The notes beneath the pieces are model-generated. The model saw only the letters and a program-made list of their open reading frames with translations. It had not been told where the DNA came from and ran no database searches. DNA of 32,000 bases from Pseudodesulfovibrio mercurii (lineage in GTDB: Bacteria; Desulfobacterota; Desulfovibrionia; Desulfovibrionales; Desulfovibrionaceae): NCBI RefSeq assembly GCF_000189295.2, contig NC_016803.1:1470001-1502000 (forward strand). The letters run 5' to 3'. Shown in pieces: positions 1-30,419 of the stretch. Numbering within the stretch: the first letter of the stretch is position 1; each line of letters begins with the position of its first letter. The position numbers and the translations under genes were made by a program.

Positions 1-2641
1 GGAAGGCGATCTCCAGCCGCGAGTAGATCTCGAAGACCTGGCGCAGCTTCTCGGAGTAGTCCCAGCGGCGCATGGCGATGTTCCGCCTGCGGTCGGCGAA
101 CCCCTCAATGACTCCGGCCACGCAGTCCGAGGCGAGCTTGGAGATGACCGCCGCCCAGAGCTGCAGCACGGCCAGGGGATCGGTCGAGCCCGCCAGGATG
201 AGCATGCCCTCCACGCCCCAGTTGAAGAGCATGGCGATGGGGATGGACAGGACGCTGCGGAAGAAGTTGGCTGCGGCCGCCTCCCTGGGCAGCCCCCGGA
301 CCACGTTGTGGCTCGAGATGTACACCCCGTTGGTCAGGGCCATGATGGAGTAGAGCAGCAGCGGGTTGGTGGCCGTGGTCACGCCGAAGCCCTTGTCCAG
401 GACCACGGACTTGCACAGCCAGTCCAGCAGGGGCACGGAGAAGCCGGTGTAGAGCAGGGACTCGGAGATACGCTCCCAGTCCAGATAATCGTTCCAGGCC
501 AGGTAGGCCGAGCGCCGGAACCCGCCCCCGCCAAGCACGGACTGGATGACGTTGCGCAGGCCGGTGATGGAGAACCAGATGATCCCCCCGAAATAGGCCA
601 GGACCCACCAATCCTTGGTCAGGTAGAAGGTCAGGAAGGCGGGTATGAACCCGGCCAGGATCTTGAACACGTTCTTGAGCCCGGTGTTCAGGTGGCCGAG
701 GGAGGGACGGCGCTTGCAGGAATCCTCGGGCTCGAACAGGGACAGCCCGTTGCCCTGCCGCCGCTTGCCGCCCAGGGCGATGACGTTGCCGCCCGCCTCG
801 GTCACGGCATAGCCGTCCACGCGCCAGCGGCTGCACGTACGGCAGACCAGCCTTCGCAGGCCAGAGACCTGGGCGGCCATGTGGACCAGCCCGCTCCACC
901 AGCCCCGGCCCTGCCGGGGCATGACGTACTCGTTGGACCGGATGGCCGTGCCCTGCACCGGGATGCGGTCTGCGGGGCGCAGCCGGGCGGCCTCGCGCTG
1001 GGCGCGCAGGGGCAGGGTCTCAAGGACCGCGAAGCCCATGCCGTGGGTCCGGGTGGAACGCCCGGTGGAACCCGAGCCAATGCTCGTGCCCAGGGGCAGC
1101 CGCTTGTAGAATTCGAGGAGCCGGTCGAACCGCTCCAGGATGCCTTCGAGGACGCGCAGCCTGTCCTCGGACTCTTCCCCGCCCCGCTCGCGGACGGAGT
1201 CCATGCACCCCCGGATGAGGCGCTTGAGCTTGACCGCGTTCTGCTCGTTCAGGGCCTGCTGCAACTGGCTGAAGGGCATGCGCAGTAGGGTCTGTCCCGG
1301 CTCCAGATGCTTGGTGTTGAAGACCTCCAGGTGGGTGATCCGCCCCTGGCACTGGAACAGAATCTCCAGGGCGTCCTCCAGTTCGAGGTCGGCCAGGATC
1401 AGGGTCAGGTGGCTGGAGTGGGCGGCCTTGCGCAGCCTTGAAGACAGCTCGGCCGGGGTCAGGGAGAGCAGGTCGGGCATGCCCCCGGCCCGCGGCGCGT
1501 CCGGGTTCGGAATGTCCGTGTTCTCCTCCGGGGAGAGGTAGCGGGCCACCAGGGTGTCCACGTCCAGGGCGTCCAGGGACTCCACCTGCATGGCGATGGC
1601 CGCCTTGGCGTCGTAGTCGGCCTCGTCGAAGCCCCGGCGCAGGGCGGTCACCCGCTCCTCGAAGAGCGGCATGGCCAGGCAGTGGATGTAGTTGCCCAGG
1701 TGCAGCACGGACGGCTGCTCCACGCCTGCGGAGGCAGCCATTTCATCATAAGATACCGGCGGGAGCAGGACCCCGAATTCCTTGTGAATGGACTGACGGT
1801 GGCGGGTGTTGAAGGCCTCGATCACGGCCCGGACGTATGCGGACCGTGCGGCGTGCACCTCCCGGCCCCGTTCCATGAGCTCGCGCACGGCGTCCACCCG
1901 AAACAGCCCCTCTATGTCGCAGTCGTCGCGCAATCCGCCCGGACACCAGACGATCTTGACGAACCGACCCCGGTGCATTGCCCGGTATTCGATGCCGATG
2001 CGCACCTTGATGCCCAGGATGGCCGCCGAAGCGAGCAGTTCCCTGGCAACGGGCAGGTCCACGCAGTCGTAGTAGACCACGGTCAGGTAGCGGATGCCCT
2101 GGATCCAGGCGTCCATGACCAGGTGGGTGGCGGACTTGCGGCCCTTGCTGTTGGCGTCGTGGACCCGGTCGTCGAAGGCGATCTGGTTCCACTCCTCGGG
2201 CATCTCCAGGAGGTGATAGCGGCGCATCTGCTCGCGCAGGAAGCCGATCTTGCCGGCCGCGGCCCAGCGAAAGTCGTGGGCCAGGGCCAGCTGACGGCAG
2301 CGGTCCCCCTTGGCCCGGACCAGCTCCTTGCCGATCTGGAGCAGGACCCGCGCCCGGTTGTTGCGCATGGCCCCCTTGGCCGCGGTCAGGGTTTCGTCCC
2401 GCAGGGCGATGAGCGCCTTGGTCCGGTCCGAGGCCTGATCCGACTTCAGGGACTCGAGCAAATGCATGATGGCATAGGCGATGCGCAATCCCCGGTCCGC
2501 TGCCAGTTCCTTGATGCCATGCGGCTTCAGGTACGGCTCGAGCAGGGTCTTGAACTGCGCCTTGTCCACGCCACGGTTCAAGACATCTTCAACTATTTCC
2601 AGCAGTTTGTAATCATTCTTATCGTAATACAAAGAAGGCAT
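1..2641 (-). CDS. Large hypothetical protein (>880 aa): soluble N-terminal part plus C-terminal multi-pass membrane region. The C-terminus lies beyond the window edge.
   Basis: Not in the supplied ORF track because it runs off the window. The reverse-strand frame with codon starts at 2641, 2638 ... 4 appeared stop-free in my by-eye translation. The track lists no minus-strand ORF in this frame, as expected if the frame stays open to the window edge. ATG at 2641-2639 is preceded by an in-frame TAG (2650-2648) and a purine-rich GGGGGATAGGGA. Translation starts MPSLYYDKNDYKLLEIVEDVLNRGVDKAQFKTLLEPYLKPHG and ends ...RRWDYSEKLRQVFEIYSRLEIAF at position 2. Hydrophobic segments occur near the C-terminus (FKILAGFIPAFLTFYL, WWVLAYFGGIIWFSITG, LLLYSIMALTNGVYI, SIPIAMLFNWGVEGMLILAG). 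The + strand ORFs 308..1288 and 1682..2701 have shadow-type composition. I recognise no family. Confidence 0.8.
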   Translation of the reverse strand, partial: MPSLYYDKNDYKLLEIVEDVLNRGVDKAQFKTLLEPYLKPHGIKELAADRGLRIAYAIMHLLESLKSDQASDRTKALIALRDETLTAAKGAMRNNRARVLLQIGKELVRAKGDRCRQLALAHDFRWAAAGKIGFLREQMRRYHLLEMPEEWNQIAFDDRVHDANSKGRKSATHLVMDAWIQGIRYLTVVYYDCVDLPVARELLASAAILGIKVRIGIEYRAMHRGRFVKIVWCPGGLRDDCDIEGLFRVDAVRELMERGREVHAARSAYVRAVIEAFNTRHRQSIHKEFGVLLPPVSYDEMAASAGVEQPSVLHLGNYIHCLAMPLFEERVTALRRGFDEADYDAKAAIAMQVESLDALDVDTLVARYLSPEENTDIPNPDAPRAGGMPDLLSLTPAELSSRLRKAAHSSHLTLILADLELEDALEILFQCQGRITHLEVFNTKHLEPGQTLLRMPFSQLQQALNEQNAVKLKRLIRGCMDSVRERGGEESEDRLRVLEGILERFDRLLEFYKRLPLGTSIGSGSTGRSTRTHGMGFAVLETLPLRAQREAARLRPADRIPVQGTAIRSNEYVMPRQGRGWWSGLVHMAAQVSGLRRLVCRTCSRWRVDGYAVTEAGGNVIALGGKRRQGNGLSLFEPEDSCKRRPSLGHLNTGLKNVFKILAGFIPAFLTFYLTKDWWVLAYFGGIIWFSITGLRNVIQSVLGGGGFRRSAYLAWNDYLDWERISESLLYTGFSVPLLDWLCKSVVLDKGFGVTTATNPLLLYSIMALTNGVYISSHNVVRGLPREAAAANFFRSVLSIPIAMLFNWGVEGMLILAGSTDPLAVLQLWAAVISKLASDCVAGVIEGFADRRRNIAMRRWDYSEKLRQVFEIYSRLEIAF

Positions 2642-2837
2642 GAGTCCCTATCCCCCTGTTCGCAACGACTCACATTGTCACATAATCGTAACATATCCTA
2701 GCAGTATCCATGCCTGCCGTCATGCGCCAAGTGCCCTCCGAAATCCAATTTTTCCTGCCATCCCTTGGGGCTGTAGGGTTTTGCCCTCTCCCCGCAAGGC
2801 TTTCTGTCATGCCGCGCCCGGCCTCGCCATCCCCCGT

Positions 2838-2886
2838 TTTGCGCGCAAAGCGATCTTGCAAAGCGGTCGCGCAAGCATTTTTGCAA
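2838..2886. promoter_or_regulatory. Cluster of TTGC..GCAA palindromes; candidate enhancer (UAS) sites upstream of a sigma54 promoter
   Basis: Perfect 12-bp palindrome TTTGCGCGCAAA at 2838-2849. TTGCAA at 2856-2861 and again at 2881-2886. GCGCAAGC at 2869-2876. The cluster lies 33-81 bp upstream of the -24 element at 2919. Confidence 0.35.
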
Positions 2887-2918
2887 GAATATATACTTAA
2901 TATTCAAGTGATTATGCT

Positions 2919-2934
2919 TGGCATGCGAGTTGCT
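2919..2934 (+). promoter_or_regulatory. Sigma54 (RpoN) -24/-12 promoter
   Basis: TGGCATGCGAGTTGCT against the consensus TGGCACG-N4-TTGCW. GG and GC are at the canonical 12-nt offset. It sits about 53 nt upstream of ATG 2987, directly preceded by an AT-rich stretch (2886-2917). Confidence 0.75.
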
Positions 2935-2986
2935 AAGTTCGGGCAGCTATTGCGGAATAACAACCGATCAACCCAACGGTGACATC

Positions 2987-3421
2987 ATGGAAAAGATGAA
3001 AATCCTGCTCGTGGACGATGAAGAGCGCCTGCTCAGCACCACGAAAAAGCTCTTCGAAAAGCTCGGCATCGAGGCGCGCACGGCCACCTCGGGGGCCGAC
3101 GCCCTGGAGGTGCTGAAGACCTATGAAGCGCATGTCATCTTCCTCGACATCAAGATGCCCGGGATGGACGGCATGGAGACGCTCCAGCACATCAAGAAGG
3201 AATACCCCCTCAGCGAGGTCATCATCCTCACGGGCCACGCCACCATGGAGACAGCGGTGGAAGGCCTCAAGCTCGGCGCTCTCGACTACCTGATCAAGCC
3301 CGTCAGCATGAAGGACTTTCTGAGCAAGGCCGAGGAGGCCTTCGAAAAGGTCACGCTCCAAAAACAAAAGATACATTCTGCCCGTATGGCCGAGTCAGCC
3401 GGGCAGGGTGAACTGCGCTAG
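2987..3421 (+). CDS. Stand-alone response-regulator receiver protein (REC1, 144 aa)
   Basis: Lies inside ORF 2918..3421. The 5' part of that ORF overlaps the sigma54 promoter, so the start is placed at ATG 2987 (MEKMKILLVDDEE). Receiver hallmarks: LLVDDE, FLDIKMPGMDG, ILTGHA, YLIKP. Only a short tail follows, with no output domain. Confidence 0.9.
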   Translation: MEKMKILLVDDEERLLSTTKKLFEKLGIEARTATSGADALEVLKTYEAHVIFLDIKMPGMDGMETLQHIKKEYPLSEVIILTGHATMETAVEGLKLGALDYLIKPVSMKDFLSKAEEAFEKVTLQKQKIHSARMAESAGQGELR

Positions 3422-3441
3422 CTAACTTCAAGGAGGTTGTA

Positions 3442-4341
3442 ATGGTTAAAATCAAGGTCCTCATGGTAGACGATGAGGAGCGCTTCCGCACCACCACTGC
3501 GAAGATACTGGCCCGCAAAGGATTCGACACGATCCTGGCGGCCAGTGGGGAAGAGGCGTTGGAAAAACTGGCCGAACGGCCGGACGTCGTCGTTCTGGAC
3601 GTCAAGATGGGTGGGCTCGACGGTCACGAGACGCTCAAATTGATGAAGGAAAAGATGCCGGAGCTGCCGGTGATCATGCTCACCGGGCACGGCGACATGC
3701 CCGGGGCCAAGAAGGCGCTGGACACCGGAGCCTTCGACTACCTGGCAAAGCCCTGCGACGTGGATCTCCTGAGCACCAAGCTCCAGGACGCCTTCGAGTA
3801 CGCCACCAAGGCACCGTACGTCGAAAAACTGGCCAGAGGGATCATGATCCCCCTGGCGGAATACACCCAGATCCCCCTGAACAGCACCGTGCGTGACGCC
3901 ATCAAGGCCCTGGAGGACTCCATGCGCCACCTGATGGCCACGGACCGGCTCATGGACACGGGTCACCGCTCGGTGGTCGTCACCAACACCGACGGCAGCG
4001 TGGCCGGCCTGCTCAGCCCGCTCGACCTGATCGACGCCATCCGGCCCGGCTATCTGTCCGCGCCCAAACCGTCCATGGCGGACAGCCTGCAATACTCGGC
4101 CATGTTCTGGCAGGGGCTGTTCTCCTCGCGCGTCAAGGAAGTCATGAACAATCCCGTTCGCGACATCATGTCCGACACCCTGCCGGTCATCGACGCCGAC
4201 GCCAACCTCATGGACGTGGCCAACAACATGATCACGCTCCCGGCCCGACGCATGCTCGTCAGGGCGGGCAACGAGGACATCGGCATCGTCCGCGAACAGG
4301 AACTCTTCTACGAAATCGCCAAGATCATTTCGTCCAGCTAA
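3442..4341 (+). CDS. Response-regulator receiver fused to a CBS-pair domain (REC2-CBS, 299 aa)
   Basis: RBS AAGGAGG at 3430-3436. N-terminal receiver motifs: VLMVDDEE, VVVLDVKMGGLDG, MLTGHG, YLAKP. The C-terminal ~160 aa show two CBS-like repeats (IMIPLAEYTQIPLNSTVRDAIKAL..VVVTNTDGSVAGLLSPLDLI, then VRDIMSDTLPVIDADANLMDVANNM..LVRAGNEDIGIVREQELF). Confidence 0.85.
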   Translation: MVKIKVLMVDDEERFRTTTAKILARKGFDTILAASGEEALEKLAERPDVVVLDVKMGGLDGHETLKLMKEKMPELPVIMLTGHGDMPGAKKALDTGAFDYLAKPCDVDLLSTKLQDAFEYATKAPYVEKLARGIMIPLAEYTQIPLNSTVRDAIKALEDSMRHLMATDRLMDTGHRSVVVTNTDGSVAGLLSPLDLIDAIRPGYLSAPKPSMADSLQYSAMFWQGLFSSRVKEVMNNPVRDIMSDTLPVIDADANLMDVANNMITLPARRMLVRAGNEDIGIVREQELFYEIAKIISSS

Positions 4342-4368
4342 CCCGAAGTCCGAGAGCGAGGTTACAAC

Positions 4369-6219
4369 ATGGCTCAAGCAAAGAAGAAAGCAACCGGTTA
4401 CGACAAGTACGTCAACTGGAAGCTGCTCATAATTCCGGTGGTACTTTTCGCTGTGATCCTTGCCCTTCCCGTGCCGCAAGGCATGAAGGACGTAGGCATG
4501 CAATATTCGGTCGGACCCAAGGTGGTGTCCAACTATCTCTGTGAACAACTCTTCCAGAAAAAGAGCTCCGACTGCGAACAGTGGCAGATCCTGACCGCCC
4601 GCATGATGGAGCAGAACATGCGCATGGGCGCGCTGTCCAAGGCGCGGCTGATGAAGCGCAACGAGAAGTGGGCCAAGACCTACAAGATTCCCGTGGATTC
4701 GGCCAACTTCAAGCGGGCCATCGAGTACGTCAAGGACAACGTGCCCGACGATGCCTACCTGACCCTGATGAAGAGCGCCTTCGACCTGCGCATGAAGGGG
4801 CTCAAGTACGACAACCTGTCGGAAAAGGACCAGAAGAGCGCAACCAAGGGCGCATGGGACATCAAGGTCTCCATCGCCATGGTCGTGTTCGTGGTCTTCT
4901 GCTTCATGACCGAGTGCATGCCCCTGCCGGGCGTGGCATTCTGCATCGGCCTCATCCTGGTCTTCACCGGCGTCGTCTCGCGAAGCGCGGTGGCCGGGCT
5001 GTACTGGGATGACGCCTGCTGGTTCATCATGGGTTCGCTCATGTTCGCCGCCGCCTTCGTAAAGACCGGCGTGGACAAGCGCATGTGCCTCATGATGTTC
5101 AAGAAGCTCGCCGTACCCAACGTCCGTTGGATCACGTTGATCTTCTTCATCGTCATCACCCCGCTGGCGGCGTTCATCTCCGACCACGCGCTGGCGGCCA
5201 TGTTCCTGCCCATCGGCATGCTGCTCTACCAGAACAGCCTGACCGACGAGATTCCCGAGGACAAGGAGCTGGCCAAGATGCTGATGATCGCCATCGCCAT
5301 GGCCTGCAACATCGGCGGCCCCGGCGCTCCGTCCGGCGGCGCCCGCAACGTCATCATGATGACCTACCTGACCGACATGTTCGGCATGGACATCGGCTAC
5401 GCCCAGTGGATGATGTACTGTATGCCGTTCATCATCGTCATGATCCCGATCACCTGGTTCGTCACCAACATGCTCTTCAAGCCCCGCATCCGCTCCCTGG
5501 CCCCGGCCATGCGCCACCTCGAGGGCGAAATCAGCAAGATGGGCAAGTGGAACAAGAGCCAGATCTGGGCGATGATCATCTTCGTCGTCATGGTCTTCGG
5601 CTGGTTCACTGAGAAGGAGTTCTACAACATGGGCATCTACCCCGTGCGGCTCGGCATCGGCGTCATCGCGGTCGCGGGCGCTGTGGCCTACCTGCTCGCG
5701 GGCGTGGTCAACTGGCGTGACTACCAGGAAAAGGTCGACTGGGGCGTTGTCTGGCTGTACGCGGGCGCGATCATCTTCGGCCGTACCCTGGACAAGTCCG
5801 GCGCAGCCTTCTGGCTGGCCCAGTCGGTCATCGACCTGCTGGCCCCGCTGGGCATGAGCCACGGCATCCCGCTGATGCTCACCTCCAACGGGTTGACCGC
5901 CGTGCTGACCAACCTGATGGCCGACGGCCCGGCAGCCGCCGCGGTCGGTCCCATCACCCTGAACATGGCCAGCATCGTGCACCCCGGCACCACCTTCCTG
6001 CCCTTCATGGCCATGGCCACCGCAGTGGCGTCTTCCTTCGCCTACTGCCTGATCATCGGCACCCCGCCCAACGCCATCGTCTACGCCTCCGGTTACCTGG
6101 AGCCCAAGGACTACCTGCGTGTGGGCATCCCCATGTGGTTCGTCGCCAACATCGTCATCGTCCTGCTGACGGCGGTCTACTGGAGCGGCATCGGGTTCGG
6201 CAACCTGCCTGCATTCTGA
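4369..6219 (+). CDS. SLC13/DASS-family (Na+/sulfate-dicarboxylate type) anion permease with a ~130-aa hydrophilic insertion after TM1
   Basis: 616 aa with many hydrophobic segments. SSFAYCLIIGTPPNAIVYASG closely resembles the SLC13 signature SSFAFMLPVATPPNAIV. A second hairpin-like motif is NIGGPGAPSGGARNVIMM. Residues ~36-165 (nt 4474-4863) are hydrophilic and rich in K/E/M. Confidence 0.85.
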   Translation: MAQAKKKATGYDKYVNWKLLIIPVVLFAVILALPVPQGMKDVGMQYSVGPKVVSNYLCEQLFQKKSSDCEQWQILTARMMEQNMRMGALSKARLMKRNEKWAKTYKIPVDSANFKRAIEYVKDNVPDDAYLTLMKSAFDLRMKGLKYDNLSEKDQKSATKGAWDIKVSIAMVVFVVFCFMTECMPLPGVAFCIGLILVFTGVVSRSAVAGLYWDDACWFIMGSLMFAAAFVKTGVDKRMCLMMFKKLAVPNVRWITLIFFIVITPLAAFISDHALAAMFLPIGMLLYQNSLTDEIPEDKELAKMLMIAIAMACNIGGPGAPSGGARNVIMMTYLTDMFGMDIGYAQWMMYCMPFIIVMIPITWFVTNMLFKPRIRSLAPAMRHLEGEISKMGKWNKSQIWAMIIFVVMVFGWFTEKEFYNMGIYPVRLGIGVIAVAGAVAYLLAGVVNWRDYQEKVDWGVVWLYAGAIIFGRTLDKSGAAFWLAQSVIDLLAPLGMSHGIPLMLTSNGLTAVLTNLMADGPAAAAVGPITLNMASIVHPGTTFLPFMAMATAVASSFAYCLIIGTPPNAIVYASGYLEPKDYLRVGIPMWFVANIVIVLLTAVYWSGIGFGNLPAF

Positions 6220-6481: not shown

Positions 6482-7030
6482 ATGGAAGCAACAAGCGAAA
6501 ATACCGCACGGATGGGGATCCGGGAATATTTTGAAACCCTGATGGACGTCATGCGCTCGCCCGCGCGCTACTTCGAGCGGGTCGCGGCCGAGCCGGGCTC
6601 CCGGCGGGCGCTCATCTTCCTGATGATCTCGGGCCTGTTCTACTGCTCGGTGAGCATGGCCTACTTCTTCGAGAACTCCCTGGCCATGGGCATCGTCATG
6701 ATGCTCAACGCCATCCTCATGCCCGCCTTCGGCGCGGTCATCACCTTCATCCTGATCGGGATGACCGGTCAGGAACGCGTGCCCTTCGGACGCATCTTCA
6801 ACATCTACGCATACGCCAGCGGCGCGGTCATGGTCATCTCCTGGATACCGGGCCTGGCCATCGTCATGGAGCCGGTGCGGGCCGTGCTCATCGGCGTGGG
6901 CCTGCACAAGGCGGCCGGGGTGGGCAAGGTCCGGGCGGCCCTGCTCATCATCCTGACCGCCGTGGTCCTGCTCCTCTTCTTCTGGAGCGCCGCGCCCATG
7001 ATCGTCGAACTGAAGCAATTGTTCCACTAG
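6482..7030 (+). CDS. Multi-pass membrane protein, Yip1-domain-like (tentative)
   Basis: 182 aa. A hydrophilic N-terminus (REYFETLMDVMRSPARYFERVAAEPG) is followed by about 5 hydrophobic segments. The layout resembles bacterial Yip1-family proteins, but the family call is by pattern only. Confidence 0.6.
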   Translation: MEATSENTARMGIREYFETLMDVMRSPARYFERVAAEPGSRRALIFLMISGLFYCSVSMAYFFENSLAMGIVMMLNAILMPAFGAVITFILIGMTGQERVPFGRIFNIYAYASGAVMVISWIPGLAIVMEPVRAVLIGVGLHKAAGVGKVRAALLIILTAVVLLLFFWSAAPMIVELKQLFH

Positions 7031-7145: not shown

Positions 7146-7529
7146 ATGCAAAAGATTCGTCTGCTCCTGGTCGATGACGAAACCGATTTCCTGAACGCCT
7201 ACGCCCGCCGCTTCGCGCGCCGGAACGTGGAGACCACCCTGGCCGCCAGCGGCCAGGAGGCCATCGACCTCGTCCGCGACGACGAGTTCGACGTGGTCGT
7301 CATGGACGTGATGATGCCGGGCATGAGCGGGCTCGAGACCCTGCGGCGGCTCAAAGCCATCAAGCCGGACCTGCCGGTCATCATCCTGACCGGCCACGCC
7401 GATTCCCGGGTGCTCATCGAGGGTATGGACATGGGGGCCTTCGACTTCCTGCTCAAGCCCGTGGGCACCGACGAGCTCTATTTCAAGGTGCTGGACGCCG
7501 TCCGCACCCGCCGTCGCGGCCAACCGTAG
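7146..7529 (+). CDS. Stand-alone response-regulator receiver protein (REC3, 127 aa)
   Basis: Lies inside ORF 7062..7529. RBS GGGAGGA at 7134-7140, then ATG at 7146 (MQKIRLLLVDDETD). Motifs: VVVMDVMMPGMSG, ILTGHA, FLLKP. Confidence 0.9.
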   Translation: MQKIRLLLVDDETDFLNAYARRFARRNVETTLAASGQEAIDLVRDDEFDVVVMDVMMPGMSGLETLRRLKAIKPDLPVIILTGHADSRVLIEGMDMGAFDFLLKPVGTDELYFKVLDAVRTRRRGQP

Positions 7530-7544
7530 ACCCGGAGGTTCGCC

Positions 7545-10142
7545 ATGAAGACCGCGCTCAAGACCCTGTTCCACTTCATCCACGGCAATCCCGAGGGAAA
7601 GCGTGAAGCGGTTGAAAAGTTCCTCAACAAGTCCGAAGACTTCCGACTTCTGCTCTCGGCCAACGGCAAGGCCCTGGAGCTCATGGCCGAGATGACGGAC
7701 GCGGCCCGGTCGGGCCAGCCGTCCGGGATCACCCGGGTGCGGGCGTTCAGCGTCATGGTCGCCTCCAGCGTCCGCCAGATGATCGAACGCCTCTGCCGCA
7801 TGGCCCCCGGCCGGTACGATGGCCTGCGCGAGGCCTTCAACGAGATCGTCCGGGACATGGACCAGGCCTTTTCCGGCCCGGCCAAGGGCCCGCTCGGTCC
7901 CCCGGTCATCCGCATGCGCGACGTGCGCGCCATCGACCTGCCCGAGACCGGCTCCAAGGTAGCCATGCTCGGCGAGATCCGGGCCGAACTCGGCGCGGTG
8001 GTGCCGCGCGGCTTCGCCATCACGGCCTCGGCCTTCCGCCTATTCATGCAGTCCACGGGGTTGGACGACGAGATCAACCGGCTCATCCAGATTCATGACG
8101 GGACCACCCTGGAGGAGCTGAGCGATCTGGCCGCGGGCATCCGCCAGGCCATCGACATGGCCCCCATGCCCCGCGAACTGGAAGAGGCCGTGCGCGAACA
8201 GTGCGCCCGCCTGGGCGACATCCGCTTCGCCGTGCGCTCGAGCGCGCTGGGCGAGGACTCGGAACAAACCGGGTTCGCCGGACAGTTCATCTCCAAGCTC
8301 GGCATCAAGCCCGCCCAGGTGACCGACGCCTACCGCGCGGTCATCTCGAGCATGTATTCGGCCACGGCCATCACCTACGTGCGCAACCGGGGGTTGCGCG
8401 AGGACGAAATGGTCATGGCCGCCGGATGCATGGAGATGATCAACGCCGTGGCCGGCGGGGTGGTCTACACCCGGCCCCCGGTGGGCGGCGACGCGGACAC
8501 GCTGATCATCAACGCCGTGCCCGGCCTGCCCTGCGCCGTGGTGGACGGCAGCTCCCTGGCCGACTCCTGGACCGTGGACCGAGGGACCGGCAGGATCGTG
8601 AGCCGCGACATCGCCGAAAAGGAAATCCGCTTCGTGCTGACCTCGGGCGGACAGGTGCGCAAGGAAAAGCTCTACGGCGGCCGCGAACTGGAACCGGCCA
8701 TCTCGGACCACGACGCCGAGCGGCTGGCCGCCCTGGCCCTGCGCATCGAGGAGCACTTCGGCCACCCCCAGGACATCGAGTGGGCCCGCGACCGCGACGG
8801 GCTGATCGTCATTTTGCAGTGCCGTCCCCTGACCATCTGCGAGGAGACGGCCGAGCTTCCGGCCGAGGACGAGGAGAGCCGGGGGCTGGCCATCCTGTCC
8901 GGCTGCATCCCGGCCAGCCCGGGCGCTGCCGCGGGCTACGTGGTCAAGGTCGAGACGGACGAGGACATGTTCCGCTTCCCGGACGGCGCGGTCCTGCTGG
9001 CCCGCAACGCCCGGCCGCAGCTGTCCGCCCTGCTGCCGCGCGCCGCCGCCCTGGTGGCCGAGTTCGGCAGCTCCGTGGGCCACCTGGCCAACGTGGCCAG
9101 GGAATACGCCGTGCCCGCGCTCATCGGCGCGCCCGGCGCGGTGGAGCGGCTGTCCGGCGTTGGCGTGATCACGGTCAACGGGACCAACGGGACCATCTAC
9201 CTGGGACGGCGCAAGCGGATGATCGAGCGGGAGGCCCGCCCGGCGGCCAAGATGCGCACCACGGACGTGGGGCTGGCCCTGGAACGGGTCCTCAAGTTCA
9301 TCACCCCGCTCAACCTGACCGACCCCGAGTCCCCGGACTTCCGGCCCGAGGGGTGCCGGTCCATGCACGACATAACGAGGTTCTGCCACGAAAAGGCGGT
9401 CCACGAGATGTTCACCCCGGGCGAGCGACCCGTGACGGGCGCGCGCAGGCTGGCCGGACAGCAGGCCATGCAGTACTGGCTGGTGGACATCGGCGGAGGC
9501 ACCGCGGGCGCCGACGGGAACGGGTCCCGCCGGAACATCACCATCGAGGACGTCCGGTCCAGCCCCATGCGCGCCCTGTGGTACGGCATGATGGCCGTGC
9601 CCTGGGAGGGCCCGCCGCCCCCGCGCATGGACGGGTTCATGTCGGTCATGACCAACGCGGCCCAGAACCCGGCCCTGGTGGCCGGGGCGCGCAACGACAT
9701 GGGCGAGCGCAACTACTTCATCGTGGGCGGCCACTACTGCAACCTGCAATCCCGGTTCGGCTTCCACTTCTGCACCATCGAGGGATTCGCGGGCGACGAC
9801 CCCAACGTCAACTACGCCCTGTTCCAGTTCAAGGGAGGCGGGGCGAGCATGGACCGCCGCCACCTGCGCGCGCGCCTGGTGTCCGAGGTCCTGGAAAAGC
9901 GCGGCTTCATCGCCGAAATCCGCGAGGACTCCCTGTTCGCGCGGCTGGAGGGCGTGGGCCGCCCGGTGGTGGAGCAGGCCATGGCCATGCTCGGCTACCT
10001 GCTCATGCACACCCGGCAGATCGACATGTCCATGGCCGACCCGGCCATGGTCGTCCGCTACCGCGACAAGTTCGAGGCGGACATCGAGGAACTGCTGGAA
10101 GGATTGCCCGGCGAGCTGCGGGAAGCGGGGTGCGCGGCATGA
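7545..10142 (+). CDS. PEP-synthase/PPDK-like protein: N-terminal helical region, PPDK_N-type ATP-grasp, phospho-His swivel domain, and an uncharacterised ~300-aa C-terminal domain (865 aa)
   Basis: RBS GGAGG upstream. ATP-grasp hallmarks: GSKVAMLGEIRAELGAVVPRGFAITASAF, VRSSALGEDSEQTGFAGQF, DIEWARDRDGLIVILQCRPLT. Swivel-domain hallmarks: AVLLARNARPQLSALLPRAAALVAEFGSSVGHLANVAREYAVPALIG, with the candidate phospho-His codon CAC at 9081-9083. The C-terminal ~300 aa (nt ~9225-10139) do not read like a PEP/pyruvate-binding TIM barrel. Confidence 0.85.
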   Translation: MKTALKTLFHFIHGNPEGKREAVEKFLNKSEDFRLLLSANGKALELMAEMTDAARSGQPSGITRVRAFSVMVASSVRQMIERLCRMAPGRYDGLREAFNEIVRDMDQAFSGPAKGPLGPPVIRMRDVRAIDLPETGSKVAMLGEIRAELGAVVPRGFAITASAFRLFMQSTGLDDEINRLIQIHDGTTLEELSDLAAGIRQAIDMAPMPRELEEAVREQCARLGDIRFAVRSSALGEDSEQTGFAGQFISKLGIKPAQVTDAYRAVISSMYSATAITYVRNRGLREDEMVMAAGCMEMINAVAGGVVYTRPPVGGDADTLIINAVPGLPCAVVDGSSLADSWTVDRGTGRIVSRDIAEKEIRFVLTSGGQVRKEKLYGGRELEPAISDHDAERLAALALRIEEHFGHPQDIEWARDRDGLIVILQCRPLTICEETAELPAEDEESRGLAILSGCIPASPGAAAGYVVKVETDEDMFRFPDGAVLLARNARPQLSALLPRAAALVAEFGSSVGHLANVAREYAVPALIGAPGAVERLSGVGVITVNGTNGTIYLGRRKRMIEREARPAAKMRTTDVGLALERVLKFITPLNLTDPESPDFRPEGCRSMHDITRFCHEKAVHEMFTPGERPVTGARRLAGQQAMQYWLVDIGGGTAGADGNGSRRNITIEDVRSSPMRALWYGMMAVPWEGPPPPRMDGFMSVMTNAAQNPALVAGARNDMGERNYFIVGGHYCNLQSRFGFHFCTIEGFAGDDPNVNYALFQFKGGGASMDRRHLRARLVSEVLEKRGFIAEIREDSLFARLEGVGRPVVEQAMAMLGYLLMHTRQIDMSMADPAMVVRYRDKFEADIEELLEGLPGELREAGCAA

Positions 10143-11815
10143 GTTCCTCCACCTACTCCCGACTCAAGTGGTACCTGGTGCTGATCATCATGGGGTTCTC
10201 CCTGGTCCCGCTCTTCGCCCTGGGCTACTTCATCCACAACGAATTCCGGCAGACCTACGAGGAGAAGCTGACCGACAACCTGCGGCTGATGGTCGCCAAC
10301 CGCCGCGACGCCATCTCCATGTTCCTCAACGAGCGGGTGGTCCAGCTCCAGATGCTGGCCGACATCCACACCTTCGGCGAGATGTCGGACCAGGCCTACC
10401 TGAACAAGGTCTTCGACGCCATCCACGGCACGTCCAGCTCCTTCTTCGACATCGGGGTCATCGGCCAGAACGGCGGCCACGAGGCCTACTGCGGGCCCTT
10501 CGACCTGATGCAGGTCAACTACAAGGACGAACCGTGGTTCCATCAGGTCATGCTCAAGGGGCTGTATATCAGCGACGTGTTCATGGGCTTCCGCAACTTC
10601 CCGCACTTCATCATCGCGGTGAAGCGGCAGGAGGCGGGCCGGACCTGGATTCTGCGGGCGACCATCGACTCCGAGGTGTTCACCTCGCTGGTGCGCAACG
10701 TGCGCACAGGCAAGCAGGGCGACGCCTACATCGTCAACGACAAGGACGTGCTCCAGACCCCGTCGCGCTTCGGCGGCAAGGCCCTGACCAGGGTCGTCCT
10801 GCCCGTGCACCCGCAGGGCGAGGGTGTGGAGATACAGTCCTGGCGGCGGGACGGCGTTCCGATCATCGCCGGGATCACTCCCCTGCCCAACACCAACTGG
10901 CGGCTGGTCATCATGGAGAACCCCGAGGAGGAGCTCTCCCCGCTGATTCGCACCCGCTCGCTGATCTACGCCCTGTTCGCCGGCTGCGGCCTGATGATCT
11001 TCGTCGGGGCCTACGTGACCGTGTCCTCGGCCGTGTCCCGGCTGCGGGCCTCGGACCGCCAACGCGCGGCCATGGACGCGGCGGTCATACAGTCGAGCAA
11101 GATGGCGTCCCTGGGCAAGCTGGCCGCGGGCGTGGCCCACGAGGTCAACAACCCCCTATCCATCATCCGCGAGAGCGCGGGCTGGATACGGGACATCATC
11201 AACGACGGCGAACTCGGCGAAGGCCCGGCCGTGGACGAACTCCAGGAGGCGGTCTCCGACATCGACCGCCACGTGGAGCGGGCCCGGACCGTGACCCACC
11301 GCATGCTCGGCTTCGCCCGGCGCATGGAGCCCCTCCAGGAGGACGTGGACCTGAACATGCTGGCCAACCAGACCGCCTCCTTCCTGGAGAACGAGACCCG
11401 GCACCGGAACATCGAGGTCGTCACCGAGCTGGACCCGGATCTGCCGCTGATCACCACCGACGCCAACCAGATACAGCAGGTCATCCTGAACCTGCTCGAA
11501 AACGCCATCGACGCCATCGACCGCGACGGCCAGATCACGGTGATCACCCGGACGGACGACATGGGCGTGGTCCTGAACATCGCCGACAGCGGGCCGGGCA
11601 TCCCAAAGGAATACCTGGCAAAGGTGTTCGACCCGTTCTTCACCACCAAGCCCACCGGCGAAGGGACCGGTCTGGGGCTGTCCATCGTCTACAGCACCTT
11701 GAGCAAGCTGGGCGGGACCATCAAGGTCAACAGCGAATCCGGACAGGGCACGACCTTCACCATCCACCTGCCCCTCACCGGTCCGCGATTCACGAGCGCC
11801 AAGGAGGAAGCATGA
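10139..11815 (+). CDS. Sensor histidine kinase (HK1) with a periplasmic Cache-like domain (558 aa)
   Basis: ATG at 10139 overlaps the upstream stop (ATGA). The upstream 1938 nt of track ORF 8201..11815 are an out-of-frame shadow. [31 protein letters not shown] (TM1) is followed by ~250 aa with a Cache-like pattern ([28 protein letters not shown]), then TM2. H-box [15 protein letters not shown]; N and G boxes [25 protein letters not shown]. Confidence 0.9.
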
Positions 11816-12210
11816 CCCAGATACGCGTACTTGTGGTTGACGACGAACCCGATTTCCTGAAGCTCATCCAGCGGCGGCTGACCAAACGGAACGTGCACGT
11901 GGACACCGTGACCAACGGCGAGGCCGCCCTGGCCTTCCTCCGGGAGAATCCGGTGGACGTGGTCATCCTCGACGTGCGCATGCCGGGGCTGTCCGGCATC
12001 GACACCCTGAAGGAGATCCGCAAGCGGTTCCGCGACACCGAGGTCATCATGCTGACCGGGCACGGCTCCCTGCAATCGGGCATCGAGGGCATCAGCCTCG
12101 GGGCCTACGACTACATCCTCAAGCCGTTCTCCATCGACAACCTGCTCGGGCGCATCCGCTCGGCCAACGAACACCTCAAGCTGCGCATCGAGAGGCGGGA
12201 ACCGCAATGA
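11812..12210 (+). CDS. Stand-alone response-regulator receiver protein (REC4, 132 aa)
   Basis: RBS AAGGAGGAAG upstream. ATG at 11812 overlaps the HK1 stop (ATGA). [38 protein letters not shown]. Confidence 0.9.
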   Translation: MTQIRVLVVDDEPDFLKLIQRRLTKRNVHVDTVTNGEAALAFLRENPVDVVILDVRMPGLSGIDTLKEIRKRFRDTEVIMLTGHGSLQSGIEGISLGAYDYILKPFSIDNLLGRIRSANEHLKLRIERREPQ

Positions 12211-13124
12211 GTCTGACCTACGCCCGACGGGTGATCATGCTCGGCCGTTCGGCCTACCCCGTGTCCTGCCTGGCCGTGGGCGCGGCCGCCTGGTTTCACG
12301 GGCGCACCGGGGACGGACTGGCCCTGGCCGCGGCCCTGGCCATCGTCTGCGGCATGTGGCTGCTGCTTTTCGCCTCGTCGCACTGGCTGGGCCAGGCAGA
12401 GGCCGAACGCGACGAGATGGGCGAACAGCTCATCCAGTCCCAGCGGGTCCTGGCCCTGGGCGAACTGTCCACGGGCATCGCCCACGAGATCAACAACCCC
12501 CTGAACATCATCCTTCAGGAGGCCGAGCTCATGCGCTACGACCTGGCCCTGGCCCCCACGGCCGAGACCATGGAGGAGGTCCGGTCCAGCCTGGACGTCA
12601 TCTACGCCCAGGTCTCGCGCTGCTCGGACATCACCCACAAGCTCCTGGACCTGGCCCGCAACCGCAAGCCCGTGTCCCAACCCGCGGACATCAACCGGCT
12701 GGTGGAGGACATGCTCGAGCTGGTGGAGCGCGAGGCCGGCCCCCGGGAAATCCATCTCCACCGGCGGCTCAGCCAGGATCTGCCCACCGTCATCTCGGAC
12801 CCGCCGCTGCTGCGCCAGGTCATCCTCAACCTGCTGATCAACGCGATCCAGGCCGTGGACAAGGACGGCGACATCTTCATCACCACCCATCGCGAGGGGA
12901 ACATGGCCTACACCGAAATCCGGGACACCGGGCCGGGCATCTCCGAGGAGAACCGCAAGCGCATCTTCAACCCGTTTTTCACCACCAAGGCCCCCGGCCA
13001 GGGCACCGGGCTCGGCCTGTCGGTCAGTCTGCGAATCATCAACGAACTGGGCGGGGACATTCAGGTGGCCTCCGCTCCGGGCAAGGGCGCCACGTTCACC
13101 GTGCGCATTCCCATCAAACGATAA
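12207..13124 (+). CDS. Histidine kinase (HK2) with a minimal two-helix membrane anchor and no sensor domain (305 aa)
   Basis: ATG at 12207 overlaps the REC4 stop (ATGA). It has two hydrophobic segments (YPVSCLAVGAAAWF and LALAAALAIVCGMWLLLFA). H-box STGIAHEINNPLNII; NLLINAIQA, DTGPGIS, GTGLGLSVS. Confidence 0.9.
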   Translation: MSLTYARRVIMLGRSAYPVSCLAVGAAAWFHGRTGDGLALAAALAIVCGMWLLLFASSHWLGQAEAERDEMGEQLIQSQRVLALGELSTGIAHEINNPLNIILQEAELMRYDLALAPTAETMEEVRSSLDVIYAQVSRCSDITHKLLDLARNRKPVSQPADINRLVEDMLELVEREAGPREIHLHRRLSQDLPTVISDPPLLRQVILNLLINAIQAVDKDGDIFITTHREGNMAYTEIRDTGPGISEENRKRIFNPFFTTKAPGQGTGLGLSVSLRIINELGGDIQVASAPGKGATFTVRIPIKR

Positions 13125-13134
13125 GAGGTGTATC

Positions 13135-13563
13135 ATGACCAATAAGGCGAGAATCCTCGTTGTGGACGACGAGGACCGGTTCCGGCAGTCCCTGTGCCGT
13201 CTGCTGCGCGCGGAGGGCTATACCGTGGACGCGGCCGAAAACGGGCTCGACGCCCTGAACAAACTGGCCACGAACGAGTTCGACGTGGTCCTGCTGGACA
13301 TGAAGATGCCCGGCATGTCGGGCTCGGAGACCTTCAACGAAATACAGCTCCAGGGTTTCGACGTGGAGACCGTCTGCCTGACCGGACACACCTCCATCAG
13401 CGACGCCATGAAGCTGCTGCACAACGGGGTCTTCGACTACCTGCTCAAGCCCGCGTCCATGCCGGAGATTATCGAGACCGTGCAGCGGGCCCTGGAGCGC
13501 AAGCTGCTGCGCCACGGGGAGATCGGCGTGTCGGAACTGATAGACGGGTCCGGAGGGCGCTAG
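13135..13563 (+). CDS. Stand-alone response-regulator receiver protein (REC5, 142 aa)
   Basis: MTNKARILVVDDEDR, VVLLDMKMPGMSG, CLTGHT, YLLKP. It starts 10 nt after the HK2 stop. Confidence 0.9.
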   Translation: MTNKARILVVDDEDRFRQSLCRLLRAEGYTVDAAENGLDALNKLATNEFDVVLLDMKMPGMSGSETFNEIQLQGFDVETVCLTGHTSISDAMKLLHNGVFDYLLKPASMPEIIETVQRALERKLLRHGEIGVSELIDGSGGR

Positions 13564-13598
13564 GCCGCCGGACCCGGCGCAAGGCCCGGGAGGGTTTC

Positions 13599-15122
13599 AT
13601 GGACGATTTCGCATACGAGAACCTCGGCATCTGCTACTGGAACGGATCGCTCGGCCCGTTCAACGTGGGCGTGGTGGGCACCGGCTCCATGCTCCGGGTC
13701 CTGCTCGACATCATCTACAACGAGGCCTTCCGCGAATTTCTGCCCGAGATGTGCCTGGCGGCCATCAGCGACACCGGCCCCGGCGAAACCCTGCCCGAGG
13801 ACTGCGAGACCTGTCCCATCTATCCGACCTACCGGGAGATGCTCGACGCCCACCCCGAGATCAACCTGGTGGTGGAGATCACCGGCGACCGGGGCGTGGC
13901 GGCCCGGCTGCGGCACGAGCTGCCCGCTTCCGTCTCGCTCATCGACCACCGGGAACTGGTCTTCCTGTGCGGGCTGCACGACATGGCCGTGGTCAAGGGC
14001 CACTACATGACCAGCCTGGACCACCAGCGCACCCTGATCCAGTCCATCATCGACGAGATCCGCGAGGACATCTTTCTCCTGGACAAGAGCGGCGACATCC
14101 AGGACCTGAACCGCACGGTCTGGCAGCGGGCGGGCGTACCGCGCAAGGAGCTGCTCGGCAAGCCGTGCTGGGAGGCCGCCCGGCTGCGCGACGGCTCCCC
14201 CTTCTGCAACCAACTGGACCCGGTCTGCCCCTTCCACAAGACGTTGCTCAGCGGCCGCAAGGAAGAGGCCATGGTCACCCGGGTCAACGGCAGCGGCCTG
14301 CTCCAGTATTACCGGCTCTATGCCTACCCGATCTTCGACATGCGCGGGCAAATGTCCCACATCATGGTCATGCACCGCGACATCACCGAGCGGACCCAGC
14401 GCGAGAAGTACCAGCAACAGCAGGACAAGTTCGCCATCATCGGCGAGATATCCACCTACCTGGCCCACGAGATCCGTAACCCGCTGTACGCGGTGGGCGG
14501 GTTCGCCAACGCCCTGCTGCGCTCGCCCAAGCTGGACGAACAGGAGCGCGAAAAGGTCCAGATCATCGTGGAGGAGACCCTCCGTCTGGACAAGCTTTTG
14601 ACCAACATGCTCAATTTCGTGCGCCCCGCGCCCGGTCCCGGCGCGGCCGTGGACCTGGTGGCAGTGTGCCGCGACGTGGCCGAGCTCATGGACGTGGGTT
14701 ACGGACGCCAGGGCTACAACATCTTGGTCCGGCCCGAGGCGAACCTGCCCGCGGTCCAGGGGGACGCCGACGCCCTCAAGCAGTGCCTGGTGAACATCAT
14801 CAAGAACTCCATCGAGGCCATGCCCGGCGGCGGCCAGATCGTCGTGGACCTGACCATGGGCAAGAGCGACGTGGTCGTGCGCATCATCGACACGGGCACG
14901 GGCATGAGCGAGACCGAGCTGGACCGCGCCTTCAACCCCTTCTACTCCACCAAGGCCGACGGCAACGGCCTGGGACTGCCCCTGATCAAGAAGATCATCG
15001 AGGAGTCCGGGGGCAGCGTGACCCTGGCCAGCCGCCCCGGCAAGGGCACCACCGTGACCCTGCACCTGCAACCGGCCATGGACGTGGACCACCCGCCCGT
15101 GAAGGCCGATAACGATACCTAG
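13599..15122 (+). CDS. Cytoplasmic histidine kinase (HK3): Rossmann-like N-terminal region, Cys-rich PAS domain, HisKA and HATPase (507 aa)
   Basis: Lies inside ORF 13194..15122. RBS GGGAGGG, then ATG at 13599 (MDDFAYENLGICYWNG). The N-terminus has FNVGVVGTGSMLRVLLDII (GxGxxG-like). The PAS region carries GKPCWEAARLRDGSPFCNQLDPVCPFHK. H-box STYLAHEIRNPLYAV; NIIKNSIEA, DTGTGMS, GNGLGLPLI. No hydrophobic helices seen. Confidence 0.88.
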   Translation: MDDFAYENLGICYWNGSLGPFNVGVVGTGSMLRVLLDIIYNEAFREFLPEMCLAAISDTGPGETLPEDCETCPIYPTYREMLDAHPEINLVVEITGDRGVAARLRHELPASVSLIDHRELVFLCGLHDMAVVKGHYMTSLDHQRTLIQSIIDEIREDIFLLDKSGDIQDLNRTVWQRAGVPRKELLGKPCWEAARLRDGSPFCNQLDPVCPFHKTLLSGRKEEAMVTRVNGSGLLQYYRLYAYPIFDMRGQMSHIMVMHRDITERTQREKYQQQQDKFAIIGEISTYLAHEIRNPLYAVGGFANALLRSPKLDEQEREKVQIIVEETLRLDKLLTNMLNFVRPAPGPGAAVDLVAVCRDVAELMDVGYGRQGYNILVRPEANLPAVQGDADALKQCLVNIIKNSIEAMPGGGQIVVDLTMGKSDVVVRIIDTGTGMSETELDRAFNPFYSTKADGNGLGLPLIKKIIEESGGSVTLASRPGKGTTVTLHLQPAMDVDHPPVKADNDT

Positions 15123-25785: not shown

Positions 25786-25998
25786 CGTCCACCAACTCCA
25801 ATGGGGTCCCGTCACCCCCCGTATCAGAACGATACCGACATTGCGCCGCAACCATTGGCGGAGGATCGCAACAACCCGGCATCGCGTCGTTTTAGCCCGG
25901 CGGCAGGGAAAGACGGCCGCCGGTATCAAAATGAAAACACCTGTGACATAAACGTAATCAGCCCGGTGTTCAAGCGTTATTGCGCGGTTCCCATCCGG

Positions 25999-26012
25999 TG
26001 CGACGGGTCGCA
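25999..26012. promoter_or_regulatory. Palindrome TGCGAC-GG-GTCGCA, candidate EBP binding site
   Basis: Perfect 6-bp arms, 84-97 bp upstream of the sigma54 -24 element at 26096, in the divergent EBP/TRAP intergenic region. Confidence 0.3.
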
Positions 26013-26095
26013 AGGATTCACCCAATTGTCAGGCATACAATGACTTTTGACCAAAACACCAAAACGGCAAAAAAGTGCGCGGCGGACGTGAACAC

Positions 26096-26111: not shown

Positions 26112-26158
26112 TCGCATGGGTGTCCTTGCACAAGGGTATCACTTCAACCCACCATACT

Positions 26159-27981: not shown

Positions 27982-28007
27982 CGGAACAAACCATGAGAGA
28001 GGATCGT

Positions 28008-30399: not shown

Positions 30400-30419
30400 C
30401 CGATAAAGGAAGGACAACC

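Follow-up and report, generated by a model that had tools for sequence, protein, structure and literature searches.

In phosphoenolpyruvate (PEP) synthase (PpsA, TIGR01418/NF005057; structures 2ols, 8a8e and 9dae), an ATP-grasp domain is followed by a mobile phospho-histidine (swivel) domain that carries the catalytic His. The same domain order and the same position of the His were found in the 865-residue protein encoded by a PPDK/PEP synthase-like gene (the PPDK-like gene), located at positions 7545..10142 (+) of a 32,000-nucleotide stretch of the Pseudodesulfovibrio mercurii genome, hereafter the window. The two proteins show 28% identity over 462 structurally aligned columns, and the chemistry leading from ATP to His-PP and then His-P is presumably common to both. 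They differ in that an unrelated alpha+beta domain replaces the TIM barrel in the PPDK-like protein, in its extra three-helix N-terminus, in the absence of the Thr of the TSH motif and in the genomic context, made up of signalling and transporter genes. Rifampin phosphotransferase (RPH) and PigC/RedH, like the PPDK-like protein, combine an ATP-grasp and a swivel with an alternative acceptor domain, which demonstrates that members of the superfamily can direct His~P to acceptors other than pyruvate. Their domains follow the order ATP-grasp, acceptor domain, swivel (in RPH chains the swivel aligned at residues 768-863), whereas the swivel of the PPDK-like protein is central (residues 449-555), and their acceptor domains are unrelated to its C-terminal domain. 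Enzyme I of the phosphotransferase system (PTS) passes His~P from a homologous swivel to a protein, HPr, and is itself charged by PEP at its TIM barrel. It has no ATP-grasp and constitutes a precedent for protein-directed transfer; of its architecture (PEP-utilisers_N, mobile domain, PEP-utilizers_C) only the mobile domain was matched by the PPDK-like protein (TIGR01417 and NF008382, E 0.16-0.25). VadK (Rv1127c) of Mycobacterium tuberculosis is a PPDK-derived ATP-grasp and swivel protein without TIM barrel, which autophosphorylates on the swivel His and acts as a regulator (PMC13400623). Like the PPDK-like protein it is devoid of the pyruvate domain, and it serves regulation rather than central metabolism. 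VadK has approximately 490 residues and no third domain, whereas the PPDK-like family possesses a 310-residue C-terminal domain and a 120-residue N-terminal region; as interaction partners VadK has methylcitrate-cycle enzymes, whereas the PPDK-like family, a group from Desulfobacterota, shows a linkage to two-component genes.

The genomic context also has described counterparts. A cluster comprising a DASS-family sulfate transporter, Cache kinases and CBS-domain proteins was reported in 26 sulfate reducers, where a role in the regulation of sulfate uptake was proposed for it (PMC11887813). The PPDK-like gene is never mentioned in that work, and the response regulators are described as WalR-type. 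The cluster in the window is of the same kind (DASS, Cache kinases, receivers, CBS), with receivers that are either stand-alone or fused to CBS domains, and in three Desulfobacteraceae-type arrays (L012, L024 and L060) the PPDK-like gene is located directly upstream of the DASS gene. The "nitrate cluster" of Desulfovibrio vulgaris Hildenborough (DvH) and strain G20 comprises the TauE-like DVU0251, DVU0250, the PtxB-like DVU0249, the histidine kinase DVU0248 (a pseudogene in DvH), the receiver DVU0247, DVU0246 (744 aa, PPDK_N and mobile domains) and the PTP-type phosphatase DVU0245 (PMC4001038). Mutants in 0251, 0250, 0247 and 0246 were nitrate-resistant and the 0245 mutant was sensitive; the G20 mutants were mildly impaired on thiosulfate, and the authors suggested a leaky thiosulfate transporter (PMC4001038). 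The parts list of the DVU0246/Dde_0604 cluster (TauE-like permease, small protein, periplasmic binding protein, kinase, stand-alone receiver) matches that of loci of the PPDK-like family such as the one in D. subterraneus. DVU0246 is approximately 120 residues shorter, and it is followed by a gene for a phosphatase of the protein tyrosine/dual-specificity (PTP/DSP) type, such as was not seen beside family members in the eleven loci inspected.

We propose, with a probability of roughly 0.55, that the PPDK-like protein is a non-pyruvate dikinase of the PEP synthase/PPDK superfamily and the dedicated cytoplasmic part of a two-component module governing sulfur-oxyanion transporters in sulfate-reducing Desulfobacterota. 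The gene starts with an ATG preceded at 6 nt by the Shine-Dalgarno sequence GGAGG (7534..7538, +), and its coordinates include the stop codon. The region has a G+C content of 67-71% and contains long spurious open reading frames (ORFs) in other frames, for example 8201..11815. Full-length homologues, with identities ranging from 92% (Desulfovibrio sp. Huiquan2017) to approximately 40%, indicate that 7545..10142 is the real frame and not a high-GC artefact. A first-pass annotation made from the sequence had quoted several peptides of this protein, all of which were found in the translation, and had placed the codon of the candidate phospho-His at 9081-9083, where the CAC of His513 was indeed read. 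It had also noticed an ATGA overlap with the next gene, encoding the histidine kinase HK1. This overlap (stop 10140-10142, next ATG at 10139) turned out to be the first of three in a row, the others being HK1/REC2 (ATG 11812) and REC2/HK2 (ATG 12207). The kinase downstream of the PPDK-like gene corresponds to 10139..11815, with dCache, HisKA and HATPase domains, and not to the ORF 10168..12210 given by a mechanical ORF list; the true start of the receiver gene upstream is at 7146 (MQKIRLLLVDDE).

The front part of the protein showed the two domains of a dikinase front end. The ATP-grasp nucleotide-binding domain covers residues 121-445 (7905..8879, +) and was delimited by Pfam, Foldseek and motifs. 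PPDK_N (PF01326) matched residues 135-445 with an E-value of 1.2e-77, at model positions 4-325 of 328, and the motifs GxK, RSSAxxED, AGQ, QDxEW and LQxRP were invariant or nearly so. In an alignment of 48 sequences K138, R231, S232, S233, A234, E237, D238, A245, G246, D410, E412, Q425 and R427 were invariant. The swivel domain (residues 449-555; 8889..9209, +) was recognized by PF00391 at residues 478-549 (E 1.6e-13) and aligned to the swivels of the PEP synthases 8a8e, 9dae and 2ols. In these solved structures the His of the TSH motif aligned with His513 (codon CAC, 9081..9083, +), the predicted phospho-carrier. The motif reads VGH in the PPDK-like protein, so that the regulatory Thr is absent, and the His, whose conservation had been proposed as a check, was present in 120 out of 120 homologues. 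The full-length AlphaFold2 (AF2) model (pLDDT 84.7, pTM 0.72) placed in succession the N-terminal helices, the ATP-grasp (121-445), the swivel (449-553) and an alpha+beta C-terminal domain. Foldseek matches of this model (PEP synthase 2ols with E 2.5e-23 over 462 aligned columns, HpeI, PPDKs and the ATP-binding domain of RPH, 5hv6, with TMt 0.84-0.88) were confined to the ATP-grasp and swivel part. Pfam, motifs and Foldseek thus agreed on the intact ATP-grasp and phospho-His swivel that the first reading had recognized, and, judged by its sequence, this part carries every canonical motif and is an intact dikinase front end.

The family-specific N-terminal region (residues 1-120; 7545..7904, +) was defined from the AF2 model, in which three long helices occupied residues 16-56, 62-86 and 93-108 (pLDDT 70-96 over residues 30-110). 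An additional helical N-terminus of approximately 125 residues had been anticipated, and it proved to be without a Pfam match: the isolated piece 1-125 gave no accepted match at E<=10, the sole Pfam hit of the region, RapA_C (E 0.015), being treated as noise. The region contains a conserved FRLLLSANxxALExM motif, in which F33, A39 and N40 are invariant, as is L94 further on; it has no conserved His. No HisKA/DHp, Hpt or HATPase_c domain was detected in the PPDK-like protein by Pfam at E<=1.

The C-terminal domain (residues 556-865; 9210..10139, +) is a family-specific alpha+beta domain, presumed to bind the acceptor or a partner. It was defined by its invariant columns, the AF2 model and the lack of known relatives. 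Approximately 38 columns were invariant, a conservation equal to that of the catalytic domains; they include H608, D609, R612, H615, E616, R737, H741 and N756, as well as R771, R775, D795, T823, R824, Q825 and D827. The motifs LHDITRFCHEK, RNYF..YC.LQSRFGFHF, ENY..FQFKGGAA...RR..R and HTRQxDM were recognized. Modelled alone, the domain reached a pLDDT of 77.8 (core >90), with a core in the order strand-strand-strand-strand-helix-strand-strand-helix. PEP-utilizers_C (PF02896) was absent at E<=10 from both the whole protein and the isolated piece 556-865, and no other Pfam family matched this piece at the same threshold. Searches of the PDB sequences gave a best phmmer E-value of only 0.44 with the domain and no match at E<=10 for it with the family profile. 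Foldseek of the C-terminal model against 350,542 PDB chains returned nothing below an E-value of 0.001, and no PEP synthase, PPDK or Enzyme I barrel. A fold resembling YbjN or type III secretion system (T3SS) chaperones was considered for the core and set aside, the matches to 4h5b and 2plg (E 0.02-0.14, TM 0.18-0.34) being too weak, as was the phmmer match to 2g7j (E 0.44). The view that the C-terminus is not the PEP/pyruvate TIM barrel was therefore upheld by both the absence of PF02896, which had been predicted along with the presence of PF01326 and PF00391, and an alpha+beta model without barrel match. The domain is new to Pfam and to the PDB and replaces the pyruvate/PEP TIM barrel.

The distribution of the C-terminal domain was established by searching 1.84 billion representatives exhaustively with a profile. 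At 50% identity this search returned 1,472 clusters, of which 735 were below 1e-30. Nearly all of the matches were proteins of approximately 860 residues with the domain at positions ~560-860, and the shorter ones looked like fragments. The best 150 of the 1,472 matches all showed the same architecture or fragments of it, and nine matches of odd length contained no extra Pfam domain. By its sequence matches, of which the best 150 of 1,472 were inspected, the domain occurs only in this architecture. One protein from the representative search, P0199 (765 aa), has lost the swivel and shows decayed ATP-grasp motifs (VLPSSMGEGQ instead of VRSSALGED), while the N-terminal helices and most of the C-terminal motifs are kept; it may be a pseudoenzyme.

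At least 600 family loci were present among species-representative genomes, nearly all in Desulfobacterota (Desulfovibrionales, Desulfobacterales, Syntrophobacterales, Desulfomonile and Desulfurivibrionaceae). A few members came from metagenome-assembled genomes labelled Acidobacteriota, Myxococcota or other phyla. A second homology search yielded 3,957 family clusters at 90% identity (E<=1e-3). Genomes often carry two or more full-length paralogues, sometimes on both sides of one two-component array, and in the two-paralogue loci the second copies were all full-length, none being a 744-aa form. Among the matches listed by a homology search seeded from the Desulfovibrio-lineage locus L020, none was named for the model strains, and the literature search for DVU0246 and Dde_0604 led to PMC4001038 alone. 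JGI records and some NCBI records name the homologues "pyruvate, water dikinase" or "phosphoenolpyruvate synthase", and no paper on the family was found. The family is large, mis-annotated and uncharacterised: thousands of sequences, almost confined to sulfur-cycling Desulfobacterota, routinely bear the name of a metabolic enzyme, and a widespread annotation error is corrected here.

The neighbourhood of the gene was investigated in 80 genome loci scanned with home-made hidden Markov models; the tallies refer to the 56 loci with at least 4 kb upstream, and the distances to the 43 loci that extend for 4 kb or more on each side. A receiver gene was present in 55 of the 56 loci and a histidine kinase gene, often of the Cache type, in 43. 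The TauE/SafE-family permease was found in 38 loci, M228, a 228-aa membrane protein, in 37, and DASS in 11, so that 45 loci contained either TauE or DASS. The immediate upstream neighbour of the PPDK-like gene was M228 in 30 loci and a receiver in 16. At least one receiver gene was located within 4 kb of the gene in 41 of the 43 loci, with a total of 111 receivers compared to 54 kinases in that range. The commonest order was Cache kinase, one to three receivers, TauE, M228 and the PPDK-like gene; in the clade of the window it was DASS, Yip1, receiver, PPDK-like gene, then Cache kinase onward. Relatives at 41-43% identity had the same partners in a rearranged gene order, as seen in the called-gene tables. 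A PPDK-like gene with a receiver and no kinase within 5-7 kb was observed in at least four loci (L013, L055, L062 and L063). No Hpt protein was present near the gene in the loci, and the conserved neighbours were only two-component and transporter genes, none of them a metabolic gene able to use a phosphorylated product.

This conservation across distant Desulfobacterota makes the link to a phosphorelay much stronger than the single overlap from which it had first been suggested. The first-pass annotation was right on the architecture, and its interpretation is partly supported. Its suggested route for PEP-derived phosphoryl groups found no support since the protein has no PEP-binding domain, and it overlooked a third conserved class of partners, the sulfur-oxyanion-type transporters (DASS and Yip1 here, TauE and M228 elsewhere). 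Together with the published clusters, these transporter partners point to the regulation of anion uptake (PMC11887813, PMC4001038). The linkage of the family to Cache kinases, stand-alone receivers and sulfur-oxyanion-type transporters is tight and ancient.

In the mechanism that we envisage, the ATP-grasp would pyrophosphorylate His513 from ATP with release of AMP, and the gamma-phosphate would then be lost to water or phosphate. The swivel would bring His513~P to the C-terminal domain, where the phosphoryl group could pass to a non-pyruvate acceptor, for which a receiver, some other protein and a small molecule are all candidates. Either the receivers would control the enzyme or the enzyme would exchange phosphoryl groups with them, and the outcome would be that anion uptake responds to the phosphorylation of the receivers and to the ATP status of the cell. 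The PPDK-like enzyme is taken as the point where these inputs are converted because the response regulators of the cluster have no output domain, those of the window being all stand-alone or fused to CBS domains and none having a DNA-binding domain, and because it is the only conserved soluble enzyme in these kinase, receiver and transporter clusters, which have been proposed to control sulfate uptake.

Several points weigh against this proposal. Autophosphorylation and transfer to an acceptor are predicted from sequence, and the gene neighbourhood speaks for functional linkage and not for a mechanism. The receivers found near the gene do not seem to form a subfamily specific to it: the 181 receivers collected from the loci showed mutual identities of 36-52%, and their best-match classes did not track position relative to the gene. 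The approximately 20 invariant polar residues of the C-terminal domain resemble a small-molecule catalytic site more than a docking surface, so that what the enzyme really produces could be a metabolite with no connection to signalling. P0199 hints that the N- and C-terminal domains may serve a role independent of phosphotransfer. Finally, the phenotypes of DVU0246 are used here as a supporting analogy resting on domain list and length, and they may not transfer to the PPDK-like family, with which a shared C-terminal domain is putative.

Much of the anaerobic mineralisation of carbon is due to sulfate reducers, which are also responsible for souring and corrosion. To our knowledge, the sensing and regulation of electron-acceptor uptake in these bacteria are largely unexplained. 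If the PPDK-like protein is an output or an energy-status input of the clusters, it would explain how clusters of output-less receivers act and would provide a new acceptor domain for the dikinase superfamily. An exchange of phosphoryl groups with the receivers would make it a new class of kinase feeding two-component signalling.

Within the general proposal, two more specific readings carry almost the same weight. One, which we regard as possible, is that of a small-molecule or transporter-protein dikinase: the C-terminal domain would bind a metabolite, a signalling molecule or a hydroxyl on a transporter or accessory membrane protein, and phosphorylated receivers would switch the enzyme. Every characterized three-domain member (PEP synthase, PPDK, RPH, glucan water dikinase (GWD), PigC, phenylphosphate synthase/HpeHI) binds a non-protein acceptor via its third domain (established knowledge; PMC4844700, PMC12167813). 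The many invariant Arg, His, Lys, Asp and Glu residues and the GG-A loop are typical of a catalytic or anion-binding site, and in 30 of the 56 loci the gene directly follows that of the presumed transporter accessory protein M228. In DvH the PTP/DSP phosphatase gene that comes after the dikinase-like gene gave the opposite phenotype, a kinase/phosphatase logic like that of GWD and SEX4. This parallel is tempered by the putative character of the homology of DVU0246 and by the absence of a conserved phosphatase gene beside family members in the loci examined, with no PTP-like gene downstream in the eleven inspected. The lack of conserved metabolic genes nearby and of any acceptor candidate that could be named also argue against a small-molecule substrate.

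The other reading, which we regard as only slightly less probable, is that the protein is a donor or shuttle of the phosphorelay, in which His513~P would be passed to, or accepted from, the Asp of the stand-alone receivers. The protein would then be an ATP-grasp-type kinase or an Hpt substitute, and its C-terminal domain a cytoplasmic sensor or a docking platform. The status of the receiver as the most constant neighbour (55/56 loci), the four loci with the gene and a receiver and no kinase (L013, L055, L062, L063), the approximately 2:1 excess of receivers over kinases and the lack of an Hpt protein are all consistent with such a role, as is the phosphorylation of HPr by the homologous swivel of Enzyme I. 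In the DvH cluster the kinase is a pseudogene, yet the receiver and dikinase-like mutants show phenotypes (PMC4001038). Apart from Enzyme I, which has no ATP-grasp, no characterized dikinase with an ATP-grasp phosphorylates a protein, however, and the dense invariant polar residues of the C-terminal domain exceed the needs of docking. In most loci canonical kinases with intact H-boxes could serve all the receivers, no receiver subclass seems to be specific to the gene, and the partner phosphatase in DvH is of a type that acts on phosphomonoesters and not on acyl phosphates.

A bolder version, which we consider unlikely, would make His513 a reversible phospho-carrier whose charge is set by ATP + Pi <-> AMP + PPi + His~P and which exchanges phosphoryl groups with the stand-alone receivers. 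Sulfate activation and the reduction of adenosine 5'-phosphosulfate directly yield AMP and pyrophosphate (PPi) as by-products. The protein would be in this case a new non-HATPase kinase/phosphotransferase of a two-component pathway and would signal both the energy charge and the sulfate-activation flux to DASS/TauE, in parallel to the periplasmic Cache kinases.

A rifampin phosphotransferase or PigC-type enzyme, inactivating or building a secondary metabolite, is very improbable. The ATP-grasp resembles that of RPH (TMt 0.84-0.88), and the NCBIfam models of RPH, PigC and RedH matched in part, with scores far below their cut-offs (204.6 vs 999 bits for RPH, NF041857; 197.4 vs 1300 and 179.2 vs 1350 bits for the others). 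The swivel is central here instead of C-terminal, the C-terminal domain does not match the rifampin-binding domain, and the context is one of two-component and transporter genes rather than a resistance or biosynthetic cluster, so that this type of enzyme is excluded at the level of sequence and fold. An ordinary gluconeogenic PEP synthase (pyruvate, water dikinase), as the names of many records say and the best NCBIfam and PDB matches would have it, is excluded at the same level and is the least credible of all, given the equivalog scores far below cut-off (294.5 vs 598 and 278.6 vs 739.75 bits), an alignment restricted to positions 7-485 of the 798 of the PEP synthase model, the absence of PF02896, the VGH in place of TSH and an alpha+beta C-terminal fold without match to PEP synthase, PPDK or Enzyme I structures.

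In the window, the cluster proposed to include the PPDK-like protein as its cytoplasmic enzyme begins with the stand-alone receiver REC0 (2987..3421, +; PF00072, E 4e-30; start from translation) and REC-CBS, a receiver fused to CBS domains (3442..4341, +; PF00072 and PF00571). They are followed by the DASS-family Na+-coupled anion symporter (4369..6219, +; PF00939, E 1e-48; TIGR00785, 224 bits for a cut-off of 198.6) and by a Yip1-domain membrane protein (6482..7030, +; PF04893, E 1.7e-11), which is syntenic in L006-L011 and L087. The stand-alone receiver REC1 (7146..7529, +; PF00072, E 6e-30) ends 15 nt ahead of the PPDK-like gene and has the DD pair, the phospho-acceptor D, the T and the K. 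Downstream, HK1 (10139..11815, +; Pfam), a dCache-HisKA-HATPase sensor kinase whose ATG overlaps the PPDK-like stop, contains the H-box AHEVNNPL and the N, G1, F and G2 boxes. Next come the stand-alone receiver REC2 (11812..12210, +; PF00072, E 9e-32), the membrane HisKA-HATPase kinase HK2 (12207..13124, +; Pfam), each joined to the preceding gene by its ATGA, the stand-alone receiver REC3 (13135..13563, +; PF00072, E 2.5e-28) and the PAS-HisKA-HATPase kinase HK3 (13599..15122, +; Pfam; start from translation). The phospho-site motifs of the receivers and kinases of the cluster were intact. The N-terminal ~270 residues of HK3, ahead of the PAS domain (window 13599-14400), had no Pfam hit and contain a glycine-rich VGVVGTGSM, which recalls motifs that bind dinucleotides; they may constitute a cytoplasmic sensor domain not described so far.

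Additional partners were seen in other loci. M228 (for example L022:4376-5059, L029:4280-4981 and L088:9277-9981; 228-235 aa, N-terminus MIAxKKEF...NSISKGSAYYI) gave no match in Pfam or NCBIfam and is always preceded by a TauE/SafE permease of considerable length (~430 aa); its probable role is that of an accessory subunit of the transporter. No homology between M228 and the Yip1 protein of the window was detected by BLASTP (E 0.61). In L001 (10678-13716) and L006 (12951-15989) which represent two lineages, a 1,012-aa gene without Pfam record lies directly downstream of the PPDK-like gene. In the near-identical L002 it is called as two genes, 10678-10857 (59 aa) and 10993-13716 (907 aa, FAD/Pyr_redox_2/Fer4), and Fer4 and CCG (HdrC/B-like) genes come after it. 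It looks like an HdrA-like flavoprotein gene with an in-frame stop, possibly for selenocysteine. A recurrent arrangement of the PPDK-like gene, a convergent flavoprotein gene of the NDH-2/Pyr_redox_2 type and a stand-alone receiver was observed at L055:7905-9609, L062:7854-8996 and L088:14640-18886, the latter locus also having a CheA-like HATPase and CheW gene. This may be a second set of partners for paralogues without a nearby Cache kinase.

In D. vulgaris the sigma-54 activator DVU0151 is predicted to control DVU0150-0146, a "transmembrane transport" operon that comes with the receiver DVU0145; this cluster is induced during sulfate-free syntrophic growth (PMC4641369, PMC4265775). Sigma-54 activators of approximately 840-870 aa with a long unannotated N-terminus, resembling DVU0151, are located divergently to the clusters in L004 (929-3535, -) and L006 (1-1311, -). 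In L004 the activator, a PF28216/DVU0150-family gene, a TauE permease and a receiver run straight into the PPDK-like gene, and from these shared components the L004 cluster may be the counterpart of the DvH DVU0150-0146 operon.

The first 2900 positions of the window contain the long ORFs 308-1288 (+), 1682-2701 (+) and 105-899 (-) with no Pfam, kinase or receiver signal, whereas a sigma-54 activator and a dCache kinase occupy the same position in the syntenic L006. The G+C content of window 2001-5000 (REC0, REC-CBS and the start of DASS) was 0.59-0.60, compared to 0.65-0.71 over the PPDK-like gene and its neighbours. Further on, a GAF/sigma-54 activator with HTH_8 is encoded at 24019-26025 (-), and TRAP transporter genes (DctM, DctP) and two genes for PALP (pyridoxal phosphate-dependent) enzymes at 26116-29042 and 29116-31886. 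This unit probably serves the utilisation of an amino acid or organic acid and has no relation to the PPDK-like gene.

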